Shown here piece after piece: positions 1,802 to 11,164 of a stretch of DNA of 64,000 nucleotides (the stretch's first letter is position 1; each line of letters starts with the position of its first letter). The position numbers were made by a program, and so were the translations under genes. The DNA is taken from the NCBI RefSeq assembly GCF_044324875.1, contig NZ_CP172186.1. One strand, written 5' to 3'. The stretch is from Escherichia coli. GTDB taxonomy: Bacteria; Pseudomonadota; Gammaproteobacteria; Enterobacterales; Enterobacteriaceae. Under the pieces are notes generated by a model that ran no database searches, was not told the DNA's origin, and saw nothing but the letters and a program-made list of their open reading frames with translations.

Positions 1802-4075
1802 TTAATGTCCGGGCCACTCCTGTTGTTCAGTGACGTGATGTGATATTTCTTCTTTAGCTGTAGCCTCATTCTGGAGGTTTGAAGTAAATATACGCTCCAT
1901 TGTTTGTGCAACCGATGGTGGCATTTTTTCTTCCACACGTTCCTCTTCCGGACAACTCTGTGTGATATAGCATACGTGCCGTTCTTCCCGGGATGTGGTA
2001 TTGATGATGTGAACTGCCTTGTTCCACAGGCTGTTTCCCCGGGCAGAGATATCTGTATCATATTGCGGAAGCAGATCCAGCGATGTTTGTGTTTCGTTAA
2101 GCTGCTTCTGGAAGGTATCGATGATACGGTAAGGCTCTGTACGGTTTTTACGACGTTTACGGGATGGTTTTGCTGTCAGTACACCAATAATGCTGCTGAC
2201 ATGCTCCGGTGTGGGAAAACGGCGCTGCACTGTCCTGGGGACGAGACGGCGGAGACGCTCCAGGCGGGGGGCTTCAACGGAAATATAGCGGTTGATGACC
2301 ACCGGATCACTGTCGCAACTTTTCTCGCTGTCCGGAATATACACAGAGGCTGACGGCACCACATCCCCCTGGAAAACGGTAAAGAACTCACCGGCATTCA
2401 GTCTGATCAAATCCTGCACGTCGATTTTGCTTTCCATCTGGATGGTGATCTGGTTACCGTCCACCCAGGACTCACCCATCACACCATCGTGGCGCTGCAG
2501 GCTGCCCATTCTGGCCCGAGCCTCTTCACCGGCGGCATTTTTCACCGTTCTTGCCGTTTTGTCGTCACTGACAATGCGTCCGGCGAATTTGGTGCCGGCG
2601 TTCTGCATCAGTGTGGCGGTGTTGGTGGCGGAGGTCTGCCCTTCAATTCGCTCCTGATCCTGCGCCATCATTATCAGGGAAAACTCCAGTGAACGTACCT
2701 GGGTGGCCTCCACAGCAATGCGGTCTGTGTAGTAGGCACCGACTTCGTCAAGGATACAGATATAGGGGAAGCGGCCTTTGTATTTTTTTACTTCCAGGGT
2801 CTGTGCGTCTGTGCCTTCCAGGCGGTAGCCCAGGTCACGGGCGAGGATCATGCTCTGCTGGGTGATGAACATACGACCGAGTGCCGACGTGGTATGGGCT
2901 GATGTGTCCAGTGCGGGGATCATCACAATCAGAATTCGGTCGCTGTGGATACTGTCGCGAATATCGATGTCGCCGGCATCTGCCGCAAAGACGTCCCCGA
3001 AGGTTTCGGCAAAGGTTGTGAATGTTTCCGAGAACTGACCGGAGAGATAAGCATGCTGTTTACGGGGCTCCTCAGTCCAGGCTGACGGCGTTCTCACCAG
3101 TGACATATCGAATCCCGGAACGTCCTGCAGGTAATTTCTCAGTGGTGCGATGGCTTCTTCCGGCCACTGGTCATCAAGCCCACGGCAATAGAGTTTTGCC
3201 ATACCTTCCAGCGTCATATGCTCCCGTAACATCTGCAGGGACATGGTTTTTCTTTCCCGGACGCACCAGAATTTTGTGCCAAAGACCAGGGCTTTGTTCA
3301 TGGCTATCGCCCGTGACTGCCATTCACCCCCCTGAACGTTCTGGGGAAGCATGGACTGCATGGTTTCGGCGGTGAAGGCTTCGGTGCTGAATGCGAACGG
3401 GTTCCAGGTGTTTGACTGTGGGCGGGATTTTTCGCCGCTCTGAATGATTTCACTGCGGGATTTTCCGCCGTTCATGAAGTTGATGACCTCGATATCATCC
3501 TCCCGGCCAAAACGTCGGGAGAGATACCAGATTGTCCTCGTGGTATCGTTCTGTGCCTTTCCGTCAACAAAGGTAAAGCCTCTTCCCCAGCAGAGAGGGT
3601 TGAGCAGCCAGGCAAAGGTGGTTTCTGTTTTACCGCCACCGGTGGTGGAAAAAAATATGATATGCCGGGTGAGGTCATCCATGCTCAGCCAGAGCTCACG
3701 ACCGATATCGTTGATACGGCGGTAACCGACATAAAAAATCCCCCGTGCGGGGGATGTTTCATCTGCTTCATACTGAAACAGGGTGGGCCAGAAGCTGAAG
3801 AGGCTTCGCCTGACCTTTCTGTCCTGGGAGGGGTCATCAAGGCTGAGCGTCATGGGCATACGCAGGGGGCATCGCCAGCGTTGCAGCGTGAATATCACGG
3901 AGGTGACCAGGGTGAACAGCAGACAGACAGGAAGGGCCAGTGGCCATATCAGGGCCGTAATGATACTGCCGGCCAGACACAGACCAATGATGTTCAGGTT
4001 GTGCAGTGCATTCCACAGCGGGTTTCCCCAGGCCGTGCGGTGTATGAGGTCAGGATTAACGTGATGCTGGCTCAT
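1802..4075 (-). CDS. trbC: type IV coupling protein, DotL/IcmO-like (IncI1 TrbC-like)
   Basis: 757 aa; N-terminal TM segments; Walker A FFSTTGGGKTET; last gene of trbA-trbB-trbC arrangement. Confidence 0.8.
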   Translation of the reverse strand: MSQHHVNPDLIHRTAWGNPLWNALHNLNIIGLCLAGSIITALIWPLALPVCLLFTLVTSVIFTLQRWRCPLRMPMTLSLDDPSQDRKVRRSLFSFWPTLFQYEADETSPARGIFYVGYRRINDIGRELWLSMDDLTRHIIFFSTTGGGKTETTFAWLLNPLCWGRGFTFVDGKAQNDTTRTIWYLSRRFGREDDIEVINFMNGGKSRSEIIQSGEKSRPQSNTWNPFAFSTEAFTAETMQSMLPQNVQGGEWQSRAIAMNKALVFGTKFWCVRERKTMSLQMLREHMTLEGMAKLYCRGLDDQWPEEAIAPLRNYLQDVPGFDMSLVRTPSAWTEEPRKQHAYLSGQFSETFTTFAETFGDVFAADAGDIDIRDSIHSDRILIVMIPALDTSAHTTSALGRMFITQQSMILARDLGYRLEGTDAQTLEVKKYKGRFPYICILDEVGAYYTDRIAVEATQVRSLEFSLIMMAQDQERIEGQTSATNTATLMQNAGTKFAGRIVSDDKTARTVKNAAGEEARARMGSLQRHDGVMGESWVDGNQITIQMESKIDVQDLIRLNAGEFFTVFQGDVVPSASVYIPDSEKSCDSDPVVINRYISVEAPRLERLRRLVPRTVQRRFPTPEHVSSIIGVLTAKPSRKRRKNRTEPYRIIDTFQKQLNETQTSLDLLPQYDTDISARGNSLWNKAVHIINTTSREERHVCYITQSCPEEERVEEKMPPSVAQTMERIFTSNLQNEATAKEEISHHVTEQQEWPGH

Positions 4076-5174
4076 TGTGATTATCCTCGGTATCTGTGGC
4101 TTTCAGGAACAGGCTGACGGTAGTGGCGTCTTTCAGGATGCCGGACGGCAGGTGCCAGCCGGTATCGGATAACACCCATGGGGTACCGCCAAAACCGAAC
4201 TGGCGGAAAGCCTGGTTATTGACATCGATGGCAGCACGAGCAGCGGTCAGACACTTTTCATCCGGTGCAGCCGGTGCATCGCCGGTGGGTGCCATACCAC
4301 CGTCTGCGGAATACAGCTGATGCCATCCGGTCGCCCGTTTTTGTGCGTCCGGTTCACACAGCAGTGGCGCAGTCCGGTTTGTGCTGGCCTCTCCGCCGAT
4401 TACGGAGACCGGATAAATCACCACGCTGAATTCCCGGGCCAGTTGCTTAAGCGCGGGCTCCAGAAGACGGCAGTTGATGCATGCGGGGTCAAGGAAGGCG
4501 TAGAGTGTGCGTTCATGACCAGTGGAGAGATTAATGGTGAACATACCCCGGTCCGCGTTGCGTTTAAGTACAGTGGCCAGATTACGGCGGGCTTCAGCGA
4601 CCAGAGTATTTTTGTCTGCTGTTATCGCCGGGGTAGCGGATGTCTCCTGCATTTCCTGTGATGCCGGGTGAACGATTTCATTTTTCGTCTCTGACGGGGC
4701 TACTGACCGGACAATTTCCTTGTCGATGTGTAATGGTGCTGTTTCTGTTACGGATTCTGTGACAGGTACCCTGAGAGGGGAATCGCTGTCCGGTTTCAGT
4801 AAAATATATCCGGCTGTTACCGCTGTCAGAAGTGCCAGCACTAATCCTGCACCGTATATCAGCCCTCTCATGAAGCTGGTTTTCCGGGCAGGAAGTTCTG
4901 CATATGCCGCGCTCAGACAGCTGTCAATCGCGGAGAGCATTCTGCCGATGTGATGTCCGGGACGTTCAGTATCAACGGTATCAACAAGCAGTGTTTCGGT
5001 TATTTCACGAAAAGGGGTGCTGAAGGACAGGTGCATCAGCCTGTTATTACGGTTAATCAGTGCGCCCAGTTCTGTAACCGGCAGGATGGCAATAACCTCC
5101 TGACCACCGTCAGGGTACAGGGCGGTCAGGGACAGGTGTTTATTGTTCAGTGTTGCAGTGTAGCGGATGGTCAT
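4056..5174 (-). CDS. trbB: thioredoxin-fold protein with CxxC motif (TrbB-like)
   Basis: 372 aa; TM/signal-like N-terminal region; motif LDPACINCRLLEPA; position between trbA and trbC. Confidence 0.65.
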   Translation of the reverse strand: MTIRYTATLNNKHLSLTALYPDGGQEVIAILPVTELGALINRNNRLMHLSFSTPFREITETLLVDTVDTERPGHHIGRMLSAIDSCLSAAYAELPARKTSFMRGLIYGAGLVLALLTAVTAGYILLKPDSDSPLRVPVTESVTETAPLHIDKEIVRSVAPSETKNEIVHPASQEMQETSATPAITADKNTLVAEARRNLATVLKRNADRGMFTINLSTGHERTLYAFLDPACINCRLLEPALKQLAREFSVVIYPVSVIGGEASTNRTAPLLCEPDAQKRATGWHQLYSADGGMAPTGDAPAAPDEKCLTAARAAIDVNNQAFRQFGFGGTPWVLSDTGWHLPSGILKDATTVSLFLKATDTEDNHNEPASR

Positions 5175-6487
5175 TGTGCTTTTTCCTTGTCGGCGGGATG
5201 CTGTTTTTCGGTGGTTTCGGTGGTTTCGGTGGTTTCGGTGGTTTCGGTGGTTTCGGTGGTTTCGGTGGTTTCACCAGTGTCAGTGTCTTCGTCGTTATCA
5301 TGGCGGCGGGGTATCACGTCATCCGTGAGTGACCAGCGGGTCCTGATCTGACGTTTACGATCGCGATCTGGCTGAGGTTCGTCCCATATCAGGCCCAGCC
5401 CCAGCATGTCCCGTCGAAGCCCTTCAATGGCCTCTTCCACACAGGGTTCCGGGCAGGGGAGGCCGAGACGGCTGGCTTCATTTTCTGCCCGGGCAACGGC
5501 CACCACGCCGGCCCCTTCGATGAAGCCTTTTGTGGTGTTTGCCCGGTGAAGGGCATAGAAGAGCGTCCGGTCAACGCCCTTGAGCCACAGCCAGTTCGGA
5601 GGCGTCAGGCGCAAATCATGTGCGTAAAGCCAGACCAGACCGCTGCGAACGTAACGGTGCTGCCTGAGCCACTTTTGTGCGCCTTCTGTTTTGATGACCC
5701 GGATAAAGGCGTTTCTGGCCAGTGAATACACCGGCGTGCTGAAACGCCCCTGGTCCCGTTTACTTTTGAGCCTGCAGGAGAGATTGAGGTTGTTCATCAG
5801 GGCTACCGCTGCTTTCCGGTCACCGAGGAAGAACTGCAGGCCAAAGATGGCAAAGAGCGCTTTTTCATGTGGGGCCATGTCTTTCCAGCTGGTCAGTGGT
5901 TGCCCCAGTTGCGCCATGAAGCACTGGCGTGTGGACGCAACATCGAGCTGCATGTTGCGGATAAGGTTGTTCTGCTCCACAAAGGCTTCGGGGGTTAGTG
6001 CGACACGGCGCTCGGGACGTTTTTGTCCGTGGAAGAGTCTGTTGTTGTCTCCGTCAGCCAGAACGGGGGCGATCGCCGGTGACAGAGCTGAAAAAATATG
6101 GGGCAGTGTGTGGATATTCAGTGGCCTGCGGGTAAAACGGGGCTGGGCCGGATGGTGAAACCACATCCACAGAAAGCCGAATGTCATGGGAAGCAGAATC
6201 AGCCAGAGGATCCCCACTGTCCGGGACATAACATCCAGCCACTGGCTGAAAGTGATGGTTGCCGCGTTGTTAGCAGTGATGGCCAGCAGGTTGTAACGGG
6301 GGACGGCAAAGTTGTGAAAGGGCCCCCAGTCAATCATGCCCCACAGTGTGTGCAGGATCAGGCAGGAGGCGAAGACGATTTCAGGTAAAAAGCGCCAGAT
6401 GATAATCGCAAAGAGCAGGCATATGGCACCGACGATATACCATATAGCCATTGGATCTTCGGCGGCAGACGTCTGTTGGTAAGACAC
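5171..6487 (-). CDS. trbA: inner-membrane protein (TrbA-like, DotM/IcmP-like) with C-terminal (ETT)7 repeat tail
   Basis: 438 aa; several hydrophobic helices; C-terminus TGETTETTETTETTETTETTETTEKQ encoded by the 9-bp tandem repeat. Confidence 0.65.
   Translation of the reverse strand: MSYQQTSAAEDPMAIWYIVGAICLLFAIIIWRFLPEIVFASCLILHTLWGMIDWGPFHNFAVPRYNLLAITANNAATITFSQWLDVMSRTVGILWLILLPMTFGFLWMWFHHPAQPRFTRRPLNIHTLPHIFSALSPAIAPVLADGDNNRLFHGQKRPERRVALTPEAFVEQNNLIRNMQLDVASTRQCFMAQLGQPLTSWKDMAPHEKALFAIFGLQFFLGDRKAAVALMNNLNLSCRLKSKRDQGRFSTPVYSLARNAFIRVIKTEGAQKWLRQHRYVRSGLVWLYAHDLRLTPPNWLWLKGVDRTLFYALHRANTTKGFIEGAGVVAVARAENEASRLGLPCPEPCVEEAIEGLRRDMLGLGLIWDEPQPDRDRKRQIRTRWSLTDDVIPRRHDNDEDTDTGETTETTETTETTETTETTETTEKQHPADKEKAQ
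5207..5269. repeat. 7 perfect tandem copies of 9-bp unit ttcggtggt inside trbA
   Basis: Read directly from sequence; in-frame, encodes (ETT)n on minus strand. Confidence 0.95.
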
Positions 6488-6643
6488 GGGGATTCCTCCA
6501 TAGATGAATGGATAAATTTCGGGATTAAGTCGGGTGGCATGAATGCGAATCAGCGCCGGTAATAACCGGACAGGAATGAATTCAACAGGACATTTTTACA
6601 GAGAAGAGCGAACGGCAGAAGGTGGTGGGAGACAGGTACAAAA

Positions 6644-6680
6644 AAACCGACTGGTGAGGCCGGTTTTTTTGCGATTCCGG
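6644..6680. terminator. putative bidirectional intrinsic terminator (A7-CCG..CGG-T7 hairpin)
   Basis: aaaaaaaccgactggtgaggccggttttttt: short GC-anchored stem flanked by A-run and T-run; lies between IS21 end and trbA promoter region. Confidence 0.4.
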
Positions 6681-6797
6681 GGTGGAGTTGGTGGCTCTGA
6701 CCGGAGGAAGTCTCTTTTCAGCTAACAATGAGAGAGCTGTTGTGACAGGCAATGTAAGAGTAAGCAGCAGTGATTTCCTCCATTGACGGAGAAACGG

Positions 6798-6881
6798 ATG
6801 ATTAACCTGTTAATCATCGTTCTCAGGGCGGTTGTTGCTGTGGCTAACGCAGTGATAGCTCTCCGGGAACTGGTTGACTGA
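6798..6881 (+). CDS. candidate small hydrophobic peptide (27 aa, MINLLIIVLRAVVAVANAVIALRELVD)
   Basis: ATG preceded by GGAG at 6-nt spacing; start codon lies inside a 10-bp palindrome (gatgattaac-ct-gttaatcatc, 6797..6818); stable hairpin 6901..6930 downstream; below track size cutoff. Confidence 0.35.
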   Translation: MINLLIIVLRAVVAVANAVIALRELVD

Positions 6882-6943
6882 TAATCCCGGAAACGTACTT
6901 AAGGGCAGAGGGTCACCTCCTTCTGCCCTTTAACAAAATATGC

Positions 6944-7120
6944 TCAGGTTAAAAATCGAAAACCTTCCTGCACTTCCTGTGCCTGTTCCCGTGAGCCAAA
7001 CATGAGCCGGCTTTTACCCGGAACTCCCCAGGAAATATATTCTACATCCACCCACCATTTTCCGTATTCTTCATACGGTCCGGATATCACTTTAGTGACA
7101 AATGCATCAATCAGGTTCAT
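6944..7120 (-). CDS. candidate small protein (58 aa, MNLIDAFVTKVISGPYEEYGKWWVDVEYISWGVPGKSRLMFGSREQAQEVQEGFRFLT)
   Basis: Manual translation; AAGGTG-like RBS upstream; convergent with the 27-aa ORF and sharing the 6901..6930 hairpin; below track size cutoff. Confidence 0.35.
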   Translation of the reverse strand: MNLIDAFVTKVISGPYEEYGKWWVDVEYISWGVPGKSRLMFGSREQAQEVQEGFRFLT

Positions 7121-7290
7121 TTTTACACCTTTCTGTTATTCTGCTTATTACGACCAGCAGACAGCAAATATTAAAAATAACGCGGCGGTAATGCGTATTC
7201 CGCTCTATTCGATCACGGATTGGCATCGAAGTCCGATCAGCGATTCGCATCCATTCGATCAACCGGGAACTTAACTTTTTCTACCGCTTT

Positions 7291-8046
7291 TTAACGCGTT
7301 TTTTCGCTGCTTTCCACTACCGGGGGATTTTTCCTCAGTGACTCTCCCTGAAGGACCACTCGGTGTGAGTTATGTACCAGTCTGTCCAGGATGGCATCTG
7401 CTGTTGTTGGGTTCTCCATCAGACCATGCCATTTATCTACCGGGAACTGGCTTACCACTATCGTGCTGCTTTGTCCGTAACGATCCTCTATGAGCTCCAG
7501 AAGGTCATTACACTGGGCGTTACTTAACTGTTCCAGCCCCAGATCGTCCAGGATTAGAACCTGTATTTTTTGCAACTGTTTCAGATATTTCAGCCAGCTG
7601 CCATCAACACGTCCCTGAGCCAGTTGTTCCAGTAATCGCCCGGTTCTACAGTACCGGACGCTGTGTTTCTGTCGACATGCCTGTTCGCCCAGCGCATTGG
7701 CTATCCAGCTCTTGCCACATCCTGTCGGACCGGTTATCAGCAGGTTTTTCCTGTGGGTTATGTAGTGGCCGTTCAGCAGTTCTCTCATCTGTTCAGCCCG
7801 CAGACCTCTTGAGGCCGGATAGCGCAGCCCTTCCGGTGTTGCCTGGTATTTCAGGCCGGCATTTTTTCTCAACCGTGCCACACGGCTGTTTTCCCTGCTC
7901 AGAAGCTCGTCATCAACCAGCAGCGTCAGCCTTTCCTCGAACGACAGTTCGTCGTAGGTCTGAGGCGTTTCCCGCTGCCGTATCAGGCTCCCGGCCATCG
8001 CCGGGAGTTTCAGTTGGGTCAGTTTGTTTAACAGGTTATCACTCAT
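7291..8046 (-). CDS. istB: IS21-family helper ATPase IstB
   Basis: Walker A GPTGCGKSW, Walker B VLILDDLG; start taken at MSDNLLNKL (track ORF 7291..8289 begins further upstream). Confidence 0.85.
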   Translation of the reverse strand: MSDNLLNKLTQLKLPAMAGSLIRQRETPQTYDELSFEERLTLLVDDELLSRENSRVARLRKNAGLKYQATPEGLRYPASRGLRAEQMRELLNGHYITHRKNLLITGPTGCGKSWIANALGEQACRQKHSVRYCRTGRLLEQLAQGRVDGSWLKYLKQLQKIQVLILDDLGLEQLSNAQCNDLLELIEDRYGQSSTIVVSQFPVDKWHGLMENPTTADAILDRLVHNSHRVVLQGESLRKNPPVVESSEKTR

Positions 8047-8062
8047 ACTGTTGTTCCTTCTG

Positions 8063-9598
8063 TCAGTGGTAGTAGCCCGGACCACGCAGGTTTTCATGCT
8101 CTGAAGCATATGCCGGATGTTGTTCGCCCTGGCGGGATAATGGAAGCTCCAGGTTCTCCCGATGGTGACGCAGCAGATTGTCGATAAAGCGTCTGTCAGG
8201 GGCGTTATAGTGCAGGGCAACGTAACAGGCCTTTTCCAGCCGTTCCGGGCCGTATTTTTTCTGAAGTGCCAGCAGCCCCAGAACTGCACGATAAGCCAGT
8301 TCCGGATGGGGTTTTGCCTTCAGCATGGATTCAACCACCCGGCCTGTGGACGGGCCCGTACGTTTTCCCTGCTCGATCAGGCGTTCCGGTGTCCATGTCC
8401 CGTGCTGCCGGTGGCGCTCTGGCATGTGAAGCGGATTGGTTGTGTGTTTATATTCATGTGTGCTGCGCGGATGTTGCGCCACACACTGCCCCTTGTGCCA
8501 GAGCTGTACCACCGACTGCCCCGCCTTCAGTGACAGACGCTGACCGACCAGTTCGTGTGGAACGGAGTACCAGTGACGGGCATATTCAACGTGGTAGTCA
8601 GGGCCAACCTTCACAGCTTTGTATTCCGTGTATTCATAAGGTGCCAGAGGCAGCGGAGAGAGTGCTGGCGCATCCAGTATGCGGAAGCGTTCTGCACGGG
8701 TTTGATTGCCGTACCCCTTCATTGGCCGGTTATTCATGTCTGTCAGTAACTCCCTAAGGCGCGCATTCAGCGCCCTGAGCGTGTGGAAGGTTTCATTACG
8801 GATGCGGGCAAGAAGCCATCGTTCAACGATGAGGACGCCGTTTTCTGCTTTTGGTTTATCTTTAGGTTTGCGTGGTCGGGCCGGGATGATAACCGTGCCA
8901 TAGTGCTCAGCCAGTGCCTGATAACTGTCGTTGATGACAGGCTCATATCGATCGGCCTTTTTCACTGCGCTTCTGAGGTTATCGGGGATGAGCAGCTTCG
9001 GTACGCCGCCCAGGAAGGTCAGGCAACGGCTGTGGGCATTTAACCATGACATCATGTCCTGACCTTCGCACGCTTCAACGTAGGTATAGTTGGACGCCCC
9101 CATTACGGCCACGAAGATTGCCACGCGGCGTATCTCACCGGTGTCCGGATTAATAACAGGAACCGTAGGACCACAGAAGTCGATAAAAAGCTTTTCGCCG
9201 GCACGATGCTCCTGGCGCATGGAGAGACGTCGCGTTTTTTTCCACTCCCGGTAGCAACGGCAGAAGTGCGAGTATCCCATCGCTTTGTTACCCGCCTGTG
9301 CCTTGTATTCCATCCACAACAGTTGCCGCGTCACACCTGGTTTTCTCATTTCCGTATCGAAGTACAACATGTCAGGCATTACAAGCTCTGATGCAAAGGT
9401 GTCTTTGGGCGGAAAAATGAGTTTCTCCAGCGTGTCATGGGATATATCAGCAGGTAATGGCCATGACAGAGAAGAGGCTTTGAAGCGGGCAAGAACCTCA
9501 AAAACGGTTGAGGCGCTGATGTGTAACGTCAGTCCGATACAACGGTTAGTCAGCTTCTTGTCGAACTTGAGCTGAAGGATCTTAAAACAGGTTTCCAT
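8063..9598 (-). CDS. istA: IS21-family transposase IstA
   Basis: N-terminal HTH, DDE-type core; start taken at METCFKILQ with RBS (track ORF extends to 9709). Confidence 0.85.
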   Translation of the reverse strand: METCFKILQLKFDKKLTNRCIGLTLHISASTVFEVLARFKASSLSWPLPADISHDTLEKLIFPPKDTFASELVMPDMLYFDTEMRKPGVTRQLLWMEYKAQAGNKAMGYSHFCRCYREWKKTRRLSMRQEHRAGEKLFIDFCGPTVPVINPDTGEIRRVAIFVAVMGASNYTYVEACEGQDMMSWLNAHSRCLTFLGGVPKLLIPDNLRSAVKKADRYEPVINDSYQALAEHYGTVIIPARPRKPKDKPKAENGVLIVERWLLARIRNETFHTLRALNARLRELLTDMNNRPMKGYGNQTRAERFRILDAPALSPLPLAPYEYTEYKAVKVGPDYHVEYARHWYSVPHELVGQRLSLKAGQSVVQLWHKGQCVAQHPRSTHEYKHTTNPLHMPERHRQHGTWTPERLIEQGKRTGPSTGRVVESMLKAKPHPELAYRAVLGLLALQKKYGPERLEKACYVALHYNAPDRRFIDNLLRHHRENLELPLSRQGEQHPAYASEHENLRGPGYYH

Positions 9599-9702
9599 AG
9601 TGCTCCTGGATTTTCTCTTTCTGGACATTGACGTCTCCACTGGTTTAAACACGGCAATGGAGACTGTGGTGAAAAGAGTTAATTCCCGGAGTGACTGGCA
9701 GG

Positions 9703-9830
9703 ATGCCAATCAATGATCGGAAGCATGCCAAATCGTGATCGATTGTGATGCCAAACTGTGATCGGAGATGGATGCCAAATCATGATCGATTCGAATGCCA
9801 AACTGCGATCGATTCAGATGCCATTTTGCA
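9703..9830. repeat. direct repeats ATGCCAAA(T/C)NNTGATCG (at least 5 copies) at IS21-family left terminus
   Basis: Read directly; spacing about 22-27 bp; typical multi-site termini of IS21-family elements. Confidence 0.8.
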
Positions 9831-9913
9831 GGTAAAAATGGCAATTTTTTTCATGCTGTATTTTTGCCATTTATTTTCTTTGAAATGGTTTTTTTCTTCA
9901 TATCAGCAAATAA

Positions 9914-10381
9914 TTATTTCTTATTCTGTTTTCTCCAGGTCCATGGTGGTACCGGATTTTTATCTGCCCATAATCCCCGCTTCAGGGCGCGGGCATCACG
10001 CTGGAGCGGCGGGAGAGTATAGTCATTATTGTAGTCCGGGTACACCCAGGCAGCGCCGTTACGGACCTGCCAGCGATTTGCTTCTGTGCCGTCAGCGGTA
10101 TAGACCCGGCCGAGAATACGGCCATACCTGTCTGTCTGCGCGTATTGCACGGTTACGGGCTTTCCGGCCACCAGGTCCTTCAGCTGAGTGGCTGACCAGC
10201 GTCCAAAGGGCTGTTTCTTTTCCGGTGCATCAATATTAGCCAGACGGACCCTGACAGGCTTTTTGTCCTGTAATATTTCCAGCGTATCACCATCAAGAAC
10301 GCGGATGACGTGCCCCTGAATCTGTGCGGCACAGAGAGAAGCGGAAAAAATAATGGTGAGTGAAAAGATATATTTTATCAT
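9914..10381 (-). CDS. nuc: secreted thermonuclease (SNase/micrococcal nuclease fold)
   Basis: 155 aa; signal peptide; motif VIRVLDGDTLEI...RLANIDAPE. Confidence 0.8.
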   Translation of the reverse strand: MIKYIFSLTIIFSASLCAAQIQGHVIRVLDGDTLEILQDKKPVRVRLANIDAPEKKQPFGRWSATQLKDLVAGKPVTVQYAQTDRYGRILGRVYTADGTEANRWQVRNGAAWVYPDYNNDYTLPPLQRDARALKRGLWADKNPVPPWTWRKQNKK

Positions 10382-10483
10382 TTCATCGTCTCCTTTTTAT
10401 TTATGAAAACAGGTGCAATTAATATTGCGAAATAATAACGTTCAGGTGTGTTTTTTTTGGCAGTGTGATACTTCACGCAGGGC

Positions 10484-11164
10484 ATGAATTCCAGTACGCT
10501 GATATCCGTGATGATACGGCAACAGATATCCGGTGACGGTATGCAGGAACATATTGATTATCAGATTGAGAAATATCAGTTCAGGGCCAGGAATGAGTCA
10601 CCGCGACTGATGCGCCAGTGGGAAGATGTCATGCGTGAATGCCGTGATACCGGAGCAGGAGCCAGGGAGCGGCTGCGGATTGCCTTACTTAATGTTGATT
10701 ATGTGACCAGTTTTGAACTGCCGTTTCGTCTGCTGTTAACCCGGACACCGCAGATGATTGACAGCGTGCGGCGGGAATGGCAGCTCAGCCAGAAAAAAGT
10801 CGTATTCAATGAGCGGCAGCGGGGATGTGTATACAGTCTGCAGAATGACTTATCCGGCGTGCCGGATAGCTTCAGTTACAGTCTTGCGACGCGAATACGG
10901 CGGGTGGACAGCTATGGCATGACGACGCGTTGTTTCACTGATATAGCCGGGCAGGTTAAAGCCCCGACAGCACGGCTGAAACTGGCGCTGGAAAGCGGGT
11001 TAATTGTCACCGCGCTGGATGGTCTGTTCTGGCTTGGTATTCAGCGTATTGCCGCAGATGTGCAGCGGCTGCGTCAGTCCGGAATGACAATCATCACCCG
11101 GGATGTTGAGGTCTCAGACTCGCTGACCGGAACCACACGGGTTGTTTCCGGGTACAGACTTTGA
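10484..11164 (+). CDS. hypothetical protein, possible C-terminal winged-helix DNA-binding domain
   Basis: 226-aa ORF; C-terminal LKLALESGLIVTALDGLFWLGIQRIAADVQRLRQSGMTI resembles an HTH; convergent with the small-gene cluster. Confidence 0.4.
   Translation: MNSSTLISVMIRQQISGDGMQEHIDYQIEKYQFRARNESPRLMRQWEDVMRECRDTGAGARERLRIALLNVDYVTSFELPFRLLLTRTPQMIDSVRREWQLSQKKVVFNERQRGCVYSLQNDLSGVPDSFSYSLATRIRRVDSYGMTTRCFTDIAGQVKAPTARLKLALESGLIVTALDGLFWLGIQRIAADVQRLRQSGMTIITRDVEVSDSLTGTTRVVSGYRL

Follow-up and report, generated by a model that had tools for sequence, protein, structure and literature searches.

Background

In-frame coding variable-number tandem repeats (VNTRs) of bacteria are the kind of locus used in typing by multiple-locus VNTR analysis (MLVA). 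This work concerns a perfect nine-nucleotide tandem array that encodes a Glu-Thr-Thr (ETT) repeat near the C-terminus of the conjugal transfer protein TrbA, and that is located in a stretch of 64,000 nucleotides from Escherichia coli (contig NZ_CP172186.1, assembly GCF_044324875.1), hereafter referred to as the window. We consider it probable that this array is a hypermutable in-frame VNTR, in which slippage-driven gain and loss of whole units changes the length of a tolerated and nearly neutral protein tail.

The closest described systems are found among the proteins that feed conjugation and secretion channels. Conjugation of R64 requires both trbA and trbC, and trbA was described as the homologue of dotM in the coupling subcomplex (PMC6112013). 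The DotM protein of Legionella binds Glu-rich peptides via patches of Arg residues, while the precise function of TrbA was stated to be unknown in 2018 (PMC5802825). In the coupling proteins of F-like plasmids, an acidic tail located behind a variable QQP repeat provides specific docking of the relaxosome (PMC3245843, PMC3159463).

Results

The array at the 3' end of trbA

Tandem Repeats Finder reported at 5206..5272 a period-9 array with 7.4 copies of TTTCGGTGG (plus strand), 100% matches and a score of 134, which is the only array with more than three perfect copies in the window. In the register ttcggtggt, it consists of exactly seven perfect units (5207..5269), the number given by the first-pass annotation of this DNA. 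The TTTCGGTGG 9-mer occurs seven times in the window, always within the array, whereas shuffled sequences are expected to contain it 0.71 times and none of 100 shuffles reached seven. Seven perfect tandem 9-mers have an expectation of about 1e-28 in 64 kb, which excludes a chance origin of the array.

Read on the minus strand, the array is GAA ACC ACC repeated seven times (codons 5210..5272), encoding (ETT)7 as residues 406-426 of TrbA, after which the protein ends with EKQHPADKEKAQ and the stop codon. The codon register and residue numbers agree with the earlier placement of the array in the 3' end of the gene, and the earlier name for the product, a TrbA-like membrane protein, is upheld by its match to DotM_C, by the annotation of its relatives as TrbA and by the neighbouring TrbB and TrbC. 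Open reading frames (ORFs) that cross the array in other frames and encode KPP, FGG, SVV or RWF repeats were discarded as mechanical by-products of the repeat, since they are annotated in no relative and their lengths track the copy number.

Copy number among related plasmids

A 601-nt query centred on the array gave matches in 471 PLSDB plasmids and in 392 E. coli RefSeq records, plasmids almost without exception. In a systematic sample of 40 PLSDB and 60 E. coli RefSeq records, the length of the locus differed from that in the window by a multiple of nine in 100 of 100 cases, implying 1-13 units. The units were also counted directly in the window and 24 fetched loci (L001-L024), giving 1, 1, 2, 3, 4, 4, 5, 5 (pCT), 6, 7, 7, 7, 7 (window), 8, 9, 9, 10, 11, 11, 11, 12, 12, 12 and 16 units. 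The distribution is broad, from 1 to 16, with no preferred length; many plasmids of Shiga toxin-producing E. coli (STEC) carry two units. The arrays of the relatives are likewise pure, up to 16 units, and all alleles translate as (ETT)n with an intact frame and an unchanged terminal peptide.

Variation in unit number is also found on an invariant background. Among the PLSDB plasmids whose 601-nt flanks are identical to those of the window, alleles of 6, 7, 8, 9, 10, 11, 12, 13 and 16 units are present. In total, 33 split-alignment or exact matches with identical flanks were obtained, with 7 units in three, 11 in eight, 12 in 18, 13 in three and 16 in one; the alleles of 6, 8, 9 and 10 units were represented by single-piece matches that diverge by the gap alone.

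These counts bear directly on the proposal that (ETT)7 is a fixed structural motif, conserved because TrbA function needs a tail of defined length. Nothing beyond the existence of the repeat speaks for it, and the range of 1-16 copies in relatives refutes it. The units are identical at the DNA level with no divergence at third positions, the encoded region is predicted to be disordered, and the distant TrbA proteins, including those of the IncI1 type, do not possess the array; we therefore give this explanation practically no chance of being correct. The first-pass annotation had proposed that the nine-nucleotide unit preserves the reading frame and lets the tail length vary, and had suggested a comparison across homologous trbA genes, in which a constant number of units with diverged third positions would have indicated a fixed motif. 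The reverse pattern was found: the copy number differs, even where about 50 kb of flanking sequence shows no point difference between two plasmids, and the units are homogeneous within each array; the third-position variant that does exist (ACT) was itself amplified.

Two of the directly counted 11-unit arrays contain an additional degenerate unit, the second in gene orientation, followed by 11 perfect units (ETT-[A/E]PP-(ETT)11). In a plasmid from Chile the degenerate unit is GCC CCC CCC (APP), and in one from Korea it is GAA CCC CCC (EPP) (L014 2806-2823, L021 606-623), that is, the ordinary unit with A-to-C substitutions that create a run of C6-C8, a homopolymer that is itself prone to slippage. 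These interrupted alleles are real, as they recur in two independent assemblies.

The product names given to the 24 loci lose precision with rising unit number. Proteins with up to 9 units are named "IncI1-type conjugal transfer protein TrbA" and those with 10-11, 13 or 16 units "conjugal transfer protein TrbA", whereas the name "hypothetical protein" is frequent for 12-unit alleles; in newer RefSeq records the name is "secretion/conjugation apparatus DotM-related subunit".

Collapse or mis-expansion of an array of uniform true length during assembly would also yield differences of whole units, as such errors do at tandem repeats, and arrays of 12-16 units (108-144 bp) are near or above common k-mer sizes; one allele also contains a suspicious G8 run. 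However, the alleles of 1-7 units (9-63 bp), far shorter than reads or k-mers, still differ from each other, and the counts are reproducible within lineages, such as 12 units in 18 matches, 11 in eight and two in many STEC plasmids. The alleles of 9, 10, 11 and 12 units under accessions KR9053xx come from a study in which indels were verified by PCR and Sanger sequencing, the Danish plasmids are hybrid Oxford Nanopore (ONT) and Illumina assemblies corrected by read mapping, and the interrupted allele was assembled independently from Chile and Korea. An assembly artefact is thus very improbable as the source of the polymorphism.

Tempo of change relative to point substitution

Loci with different unit numbers were found to be identical or nearly identical outside the array. 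No differences were observed over 3.3-kb flanks between L001 and L002 (11 vs 12 units) or between pDV10 (L005, KR905390; 9 units) and pTMSA1088 (L008, KR905386; 10 units), and a single difference was observed over the same length between L003 and L006 (11 vs 6 units) and between L004 and L007 (7 vs 8 units). Previously, pDV10 and pTMSA1088 were published as identical save for the shufflon (PMC5350095); by our counts they are one ETT unit apart. Size homoplasy is also evident, as 7-unit alleles are located on flanks separated by approximately 220 differences (window vs L004, 3.3 kb).

The strongest evidence comes from pHBI01 (7 units; 119,333 bp; isolate from human blood) and pSA17022 (12 units; 119,378 bp; isolate from a slaughterhouse), which show 0 mismatches over 49,892 flanking bases and a gap in total length of exactly 45 bp. 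The records MT725450 and MT707656 behave in the same way, and are possibly re-deposits of those plasmids. The host isolates HBI01 and SA17021/SA17022 are reported to be 4-7 single nucleotide polymorphisms (SNPs) apart (PMC11047599). Since 7 and 12 units occur without any flanking mismatch in hosts so closely related, the array changes within recent transmission chains. One array event accompanied by zero substitutions in about 50 kb suggests that the array, as one locus, changes faster than about 5e4 sites together acquire substitutions.

Of the recent expansion proposed in the first-pass annotation, the recency of change is confirmed and the expansion is not. The closest clade possesses mostly 11-12 units, so that a 7-unit allele within it is explained more simply by contraction; the window's own array may have changed in either direction.

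Origin and lineage restriction

The single-unit alleles read GGT GAA ACC ACC GAA ACC CGG (GETTETR...) and contain a 15-nt proto-repeat made of one full and one partial unit. The array probably grew from this proto-repeat, GAAACCACC GAAACC, which occurs as one unit in some I-complex plasmids. Two types of arrays can be distinguished. IncK2/Z, IncB/O and IncK1 plasmids carry the "G" type, (GAA ACC ACC)n with EKQHPADKEK[A/E]Q behind it. The "A" type consists of one GAA ACC ACC followed by 1, 2, 3 or 8 copies of the synonymous GAA ACC ACT and keeps the ancestral ETRHPADKEKAQ end; it is carried by four E. coli plasmids (L010, L012, L015 and L017), among them plasmids of strains named STEC1012 and plasmids of cattle and sheep isolates. 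The "A" type represents a second lineage, in which a variant unit was amplified independently. Separate amplification of a third-position variant is as predicted by DNA slippage proceeding unit by unit.

The ETT array was not found in more distant TrbA proteins (<=76% identity, 375-462 aa), including those of the IncI1 type. These proteins have short acidic tails, most of which terminate in Phe (...PATDHEF, ...EDDEQPF, ...DDDSPF, ...EPENEF), and in the K/B/O/Z branch (ETT)n-EKQHPADKEKAQ is present in place of the Phe-ended acidic tail. The Phe-ended acidic tail might represent a short linear motif that has been conserved. The tails of F-like TraD proteins are highly acidic and contain aromatic residues (PMC3159463).

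The tail of TrbA and its possible role

AlphaFold, supplied with an alignment of 19 sequences, confidently predicts the helices of the membrane region and a helical DotM-like fold up to about residue 364, whereas residues 376-438 have a predicted local distance difference test (pLDDT) score of 31-49 and no secondary structure. This extension comprises a basic linker and then an acidic tail, residues 398-438 (net charge -11), which holds the array and to which each ETT unit contributes -1; the cytoplasmic segment 151-364 has a net charge of +12. The alignment with DotM stops at about TrbA 358-359, and therefore the tail is an add-on without a DotM counterpart.

The tolerance of different tail lengths can be read from a published collection, in which 46 of 46 IncK-blaCMY-2 isolates transferred blaCMY-2 in filter matings (PMC11047599). 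Among the plasmids of that study we counted 6 units in pSB18001, 7 in pHBI01 and pHBI05, 11 in pSB17032, pSB17042, pHBI03, pRL97, pRL316 and pRL320, and 12 in many others. Plasmids with 6, 7, 11 and 12 units all conjugate, and length variation is tolerated. Because the mating assay was qualitative, graded effects on transfer are still possible.

An adaptive alternative is that the coupling complex is tuned through the ETT copy number, with hypermutability selected as a heritable means to adjust the frequency or specificity of conjugation, and with the tail serving as what could be a flexible acidic tether, a motif on which a relaxosome or substrate protein docks, or a competitor in cis for the surface of the DotM-like domain that recognizes acidic signals. 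Several observations agree with such a rheostat: every TrbA homologue examined has an acidic C-terminal tail, the charges of the folded domain and the tail are opposite, Legionella DotM binds Glu-rich peptides, and the F-like acidic tail docks relaxosomes from behind a variable repeat. The Arg patches of DotM (R196/R197, R217, R314/R315) are, however, poorly retained in TrbA, where R314 (TrbA R307) is the sole conserved residue; R315 aligns to T308, R217 aligns to K202/D203, and R196/R197 lie outside the confidently aligned block. Moreover, the modelled tail (pLDDT 31-41) is not docked on the domain, no length is favoured among 1-16 units, transfer proceeds at 6, 7, 11 and 12 units, and single-unit alleles are present on plasmids typed as conjugative. 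In view of this evidence we regard tuning as unlikely. Slightly less likely still is its more specific form of a plasmid-borne rheostat, in which each slippage event would add or remove one negative charge and three residues and so set conjugation frequency or substrate choice. In this form the acidic tail could compete for, or bridge to, a basic surface (the DotM-like domain, TrbC, or a relaxosome or primase substrate), and hypermutability would be kept by selection in changing hosts, such as poultry and the human gut.

The acidic tail was also considered as a mimic in cis of the Glu-rich ligand of DotM. With one of five Arg residues conserved and the tail undocked in the AlphaFold model, this candidate was set aside and is kept as a low-probability reading.

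The array as nucleic acid

The possibility that the repeat acts at the level of DNA or RNA was also evaluated. The start of trbB, whose ATG overlaps the stop codon of trbA as ATGA (5171..5174), lies 32 nt downstream of the end of the array, and a weak terminator-like match (plus strand, 5191-5203) abuts the array. The 9-mer might accordingly serve as a protein-binding array, as a promoter or terminator inside the gene, or as an mRNA structure controlling the translationally coupled trbB gene, the ETT residues being incidental. However, the distance between the array and trbB is invariant in all alleles, no promoter-like sites were found in 4900-5600, the 9-mer is present nowhere else in the 64 kb, and the terminator-like match is weak (5 pairs) and located on the non-coding strand. 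Furthermore, the folding of the two strands of the array was no better than that of shuffles (z = 0.09 and -0.68), and a binding array would hardly span 1-16 copies or be absent from IncI1 plasmids with the same trbA-trbB layout. We therefore assign a cis element a very small probability.

The folding result also concerns the mechanism of instability: as no structure above that of shuffles was detected on either strand of the array, simple misalignment is preferred over hairpin-mediated slippage, and structure-driven instability was set aside.

Gene context of the array

On sequence evidence, TrbA is a DotM/IcmP-like subunit of the type IVB coupling complex of an IncK2-like I-complex plasmid (Table 1). 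The Pfam PF23127 (DotM_C) match scores 162 bits (E = 1.6e-47; cut-off 27), and a TrbA profile of 19 homologues detects DotM structures in PDB, namely 6sz9_B (E = 2.5e-19), 6exa and 5x1u, in a range from 2.5e-19 to 1e-15. The profile match spans DotM residues 6-363, and pairwise the proteins are collinear over TrbA 4-358 and DotM 9-362. The score of TrbA against the DotM/IcmP equivalog NF033890 of NCBIfam (70.7 bits) is below the cut-off of 230, so that it is a DotM homologue and not an equivalog. Residues 12-32, 34-51, 55-73 and 92-110 form long hydrophobic helices in the AlphaFold model.

The relatives of the protein are annotated as "IncI1-type conjugal transfer protein TrbA". The trbC product matches TrbC_conju of NCBIfam (E = 1.3e-303) and TraG-D_C of Pfam. 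The nearest plasmids are typed IncK2/Z, MOBP and MPF_I, and the transfer region of the relatives also encodes homologues of DotA/TraY, DotH and DotI.

Table 1. Features of the trbABC region in the window
Feature	Coordinates	Strand	Evidence
Perfect 9-bp tandem array	5206..5272	-	Tandem Repeats Finder, pattern search, translation, codon register
trbA, 438 aa + stop	5171..6487	-	ORF, Pfam DotM_C, DotM profile match, annotated trbA of the same length in relatives
DotM_C cytoplasmic domain, residues 185-358	5414..5935	-	Pfam domain limits
Predicted disordered C-terminal extension, residues 376-438	5174..5362	-	AlphaFold, charge, end of DotM alignment
trbB, DsbC-like, 372 aa	4056..5174	-	ORF, domain search, annotation of relatives
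trbC, 757 aa, DotL-like type IV coupling ATPase at the end of the trbABC unit	1802..4075	-	NCBIfam, Pfam

An IS21-family element (7191-9831) is located between a small ORF upstream of trbA (6944-7120) and a thermonuclease gene (9914-10381). Its two ORFs on the minus strand, 7291-8289 and 8063-9709, encode IstB (PF01695, E = 2.4e-60) and IstA (rve and Mu-transposase C domains). IncK2 relatives do not possess the element, and their alignment with the window breaks at 7191 and resumes at 9831; pCT carries an ISSso4-like IS21 element at another site, past the nuclease gene. At the inner edge of the element (9701-9823) are imperfect tandem repeats with periods of 23 and 47 (73-81% matches), which may correspond to the multiple terminal repeats that IS21 ends typically carry.

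Over the 601 nt at the array, the window and IncK2 plasmids are 100% identical. Over 1939-7191, the window has 56 mismatches relative to L018 (MT725450, pHBI01-type), and other segments show only 90-97% identity. No PLSDB record matched 4800-10600 over its full length at high identity, the best full-length match being pCT with 96.6%. These comparisons suggest a mosaic I-complex backbone in which the flanks of trbA are of the IncK2 type.

Discussion

The observations reported here are accounted for most economically by an in-frame VNTR. Whole 9-nt units would be gained and lost, with slippage of identical units during replication as the most likely route, although unequal recombination between plasmid copies could be an alternative. 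Since the unit comprises three codons, each event lengthens or shortens a disordered acidic tail by Glu-Thr-Thr, and this tail is predicted to hang off the folded DotM-like domain of TrbA. As a wide range of tail lengths is tolerated, the length would drift rapidly and nearly neutrally; we infer this near-neutrality from the conjugation results described above.

Several points weigh against this explanation. Neutrality is deduced from qualitative conjugation results, and the instability from a comparison of assemblies. Some of the records may be re-deposits, so that the four-way identity around pHBI01 and pSA17022 perhaps represents fewer than four independent observations. Miscounts are conceivable where an array exceeds the k-mer of the assembler, and such errors would also be multiples of nine. 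This concern is mitigated for arrays of up to 7 units (63 bp), which are well inside read and k-mer length, and by the alleles taken from hybrid ONT and Illumina or Sanger-verified 454 assemblies, as well as by the reproducibility of counts within lineages; the exact number of units in the longest arrays retains this caveat. Finally, the conservation of acidic tails across the TrbA homologues hints that the tail is not functionless.

The finding is an ordinary coding repeat polymorphism at a locus where it is apparently unreported. In the literature that we searched, which was not exhaustive, no published description of the trbA repeat was found, nor any MLVA or plasmid-typing scheme that uses it, and the IncK2 comparative papers searched do not mention trbA. 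The IncK2, IncK1 and IncB/O plasmids rank among the main vehicles of blaCMY-2 and blaCTX-M-14 in both poultry and humans. For such plasmids, the array is a fast marker that can separate molecules otherwise identical across tens of kilobases, which is possibly useful at fine scale and is overlooked by SNP-based comparisons and by published statements of identity. It is also a trap for assembly and annotation, and BLAST identity at the array mostly reflects the number of units rather than real divergence. With respect to I-type conjugation, the C-terminal tail of the DotM-like subunit can be viewed as a length-tolerant, disordered acidic appendage, and the alleles described here represent a natural series for probing its role.

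Compared with known systems, the trbA locus appears from its sequence to be an in-frame coding VNTR by definition, with near-identical units, differences of whole units and a preserved frame. Similar to other coding VNTRs, it consists of perfect head-to-tail units with a length that is a multiple of three, changes faster than point substitution, shows size homoplasy and homogeneous arrays, and encodes a low-complexity, disordered protein segment. It differs in being located in an essential transfer gene of a conjugative resistance plasmid, whereas the typical VNTR is found in a chromosomal gene for a surface protein. Contingency loci share with it the presumed slippage at a perfect short repeat and the heritable, reversible change, but they switch genes ON and OFF via frameshifts or promoter spacing, whereas the trbA array produces a graded tail length. 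Because there is neither a frameshift nor a promoter-like site near the array, it is not a phase-variable contingency locus.

Among secretion and conjugation proteins, Legionella DotM (IcmP) shares with TrbA an N-terminal membrane region and an all-helical cytoplasmic domain, and the gene of TrbA likewise lies beside that of a DotL-like ATPase. However, DotM (380 aa) ends soon after the fold and lacks an acidic repeat tail of the ETT type, and four of its five Arg residues that bind Glu-rich peptides are not demonstrably conserved in TrbA.

The closest analogue is the variable QQP repeat of the F-like TraD proteins (F, R1 and R100), by resemblance in function and architecture and not by membership. 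Like the trbA array, it is a tripeptide repeat whose length varies between close plasmids (QPQQP in F, 23 residues in R1), and it forms a flexible C-terminal extension of a coupling-complex component beside a highly acidic tail (PMC3245843, PMC3159463). Both proteins act at the cytoplasmic entrance of the conjugation channel. On the other hand, TraD is a VirD4-like ATPase whose equivalent in the I-complex is TrbC, whereas TrbA is a non-homologous DotM-like accessory subunit that matches DotM_C only. The repeat is the acidic and polar ETT in TrbA and QQP in TraD, whose tail docks on TraM.

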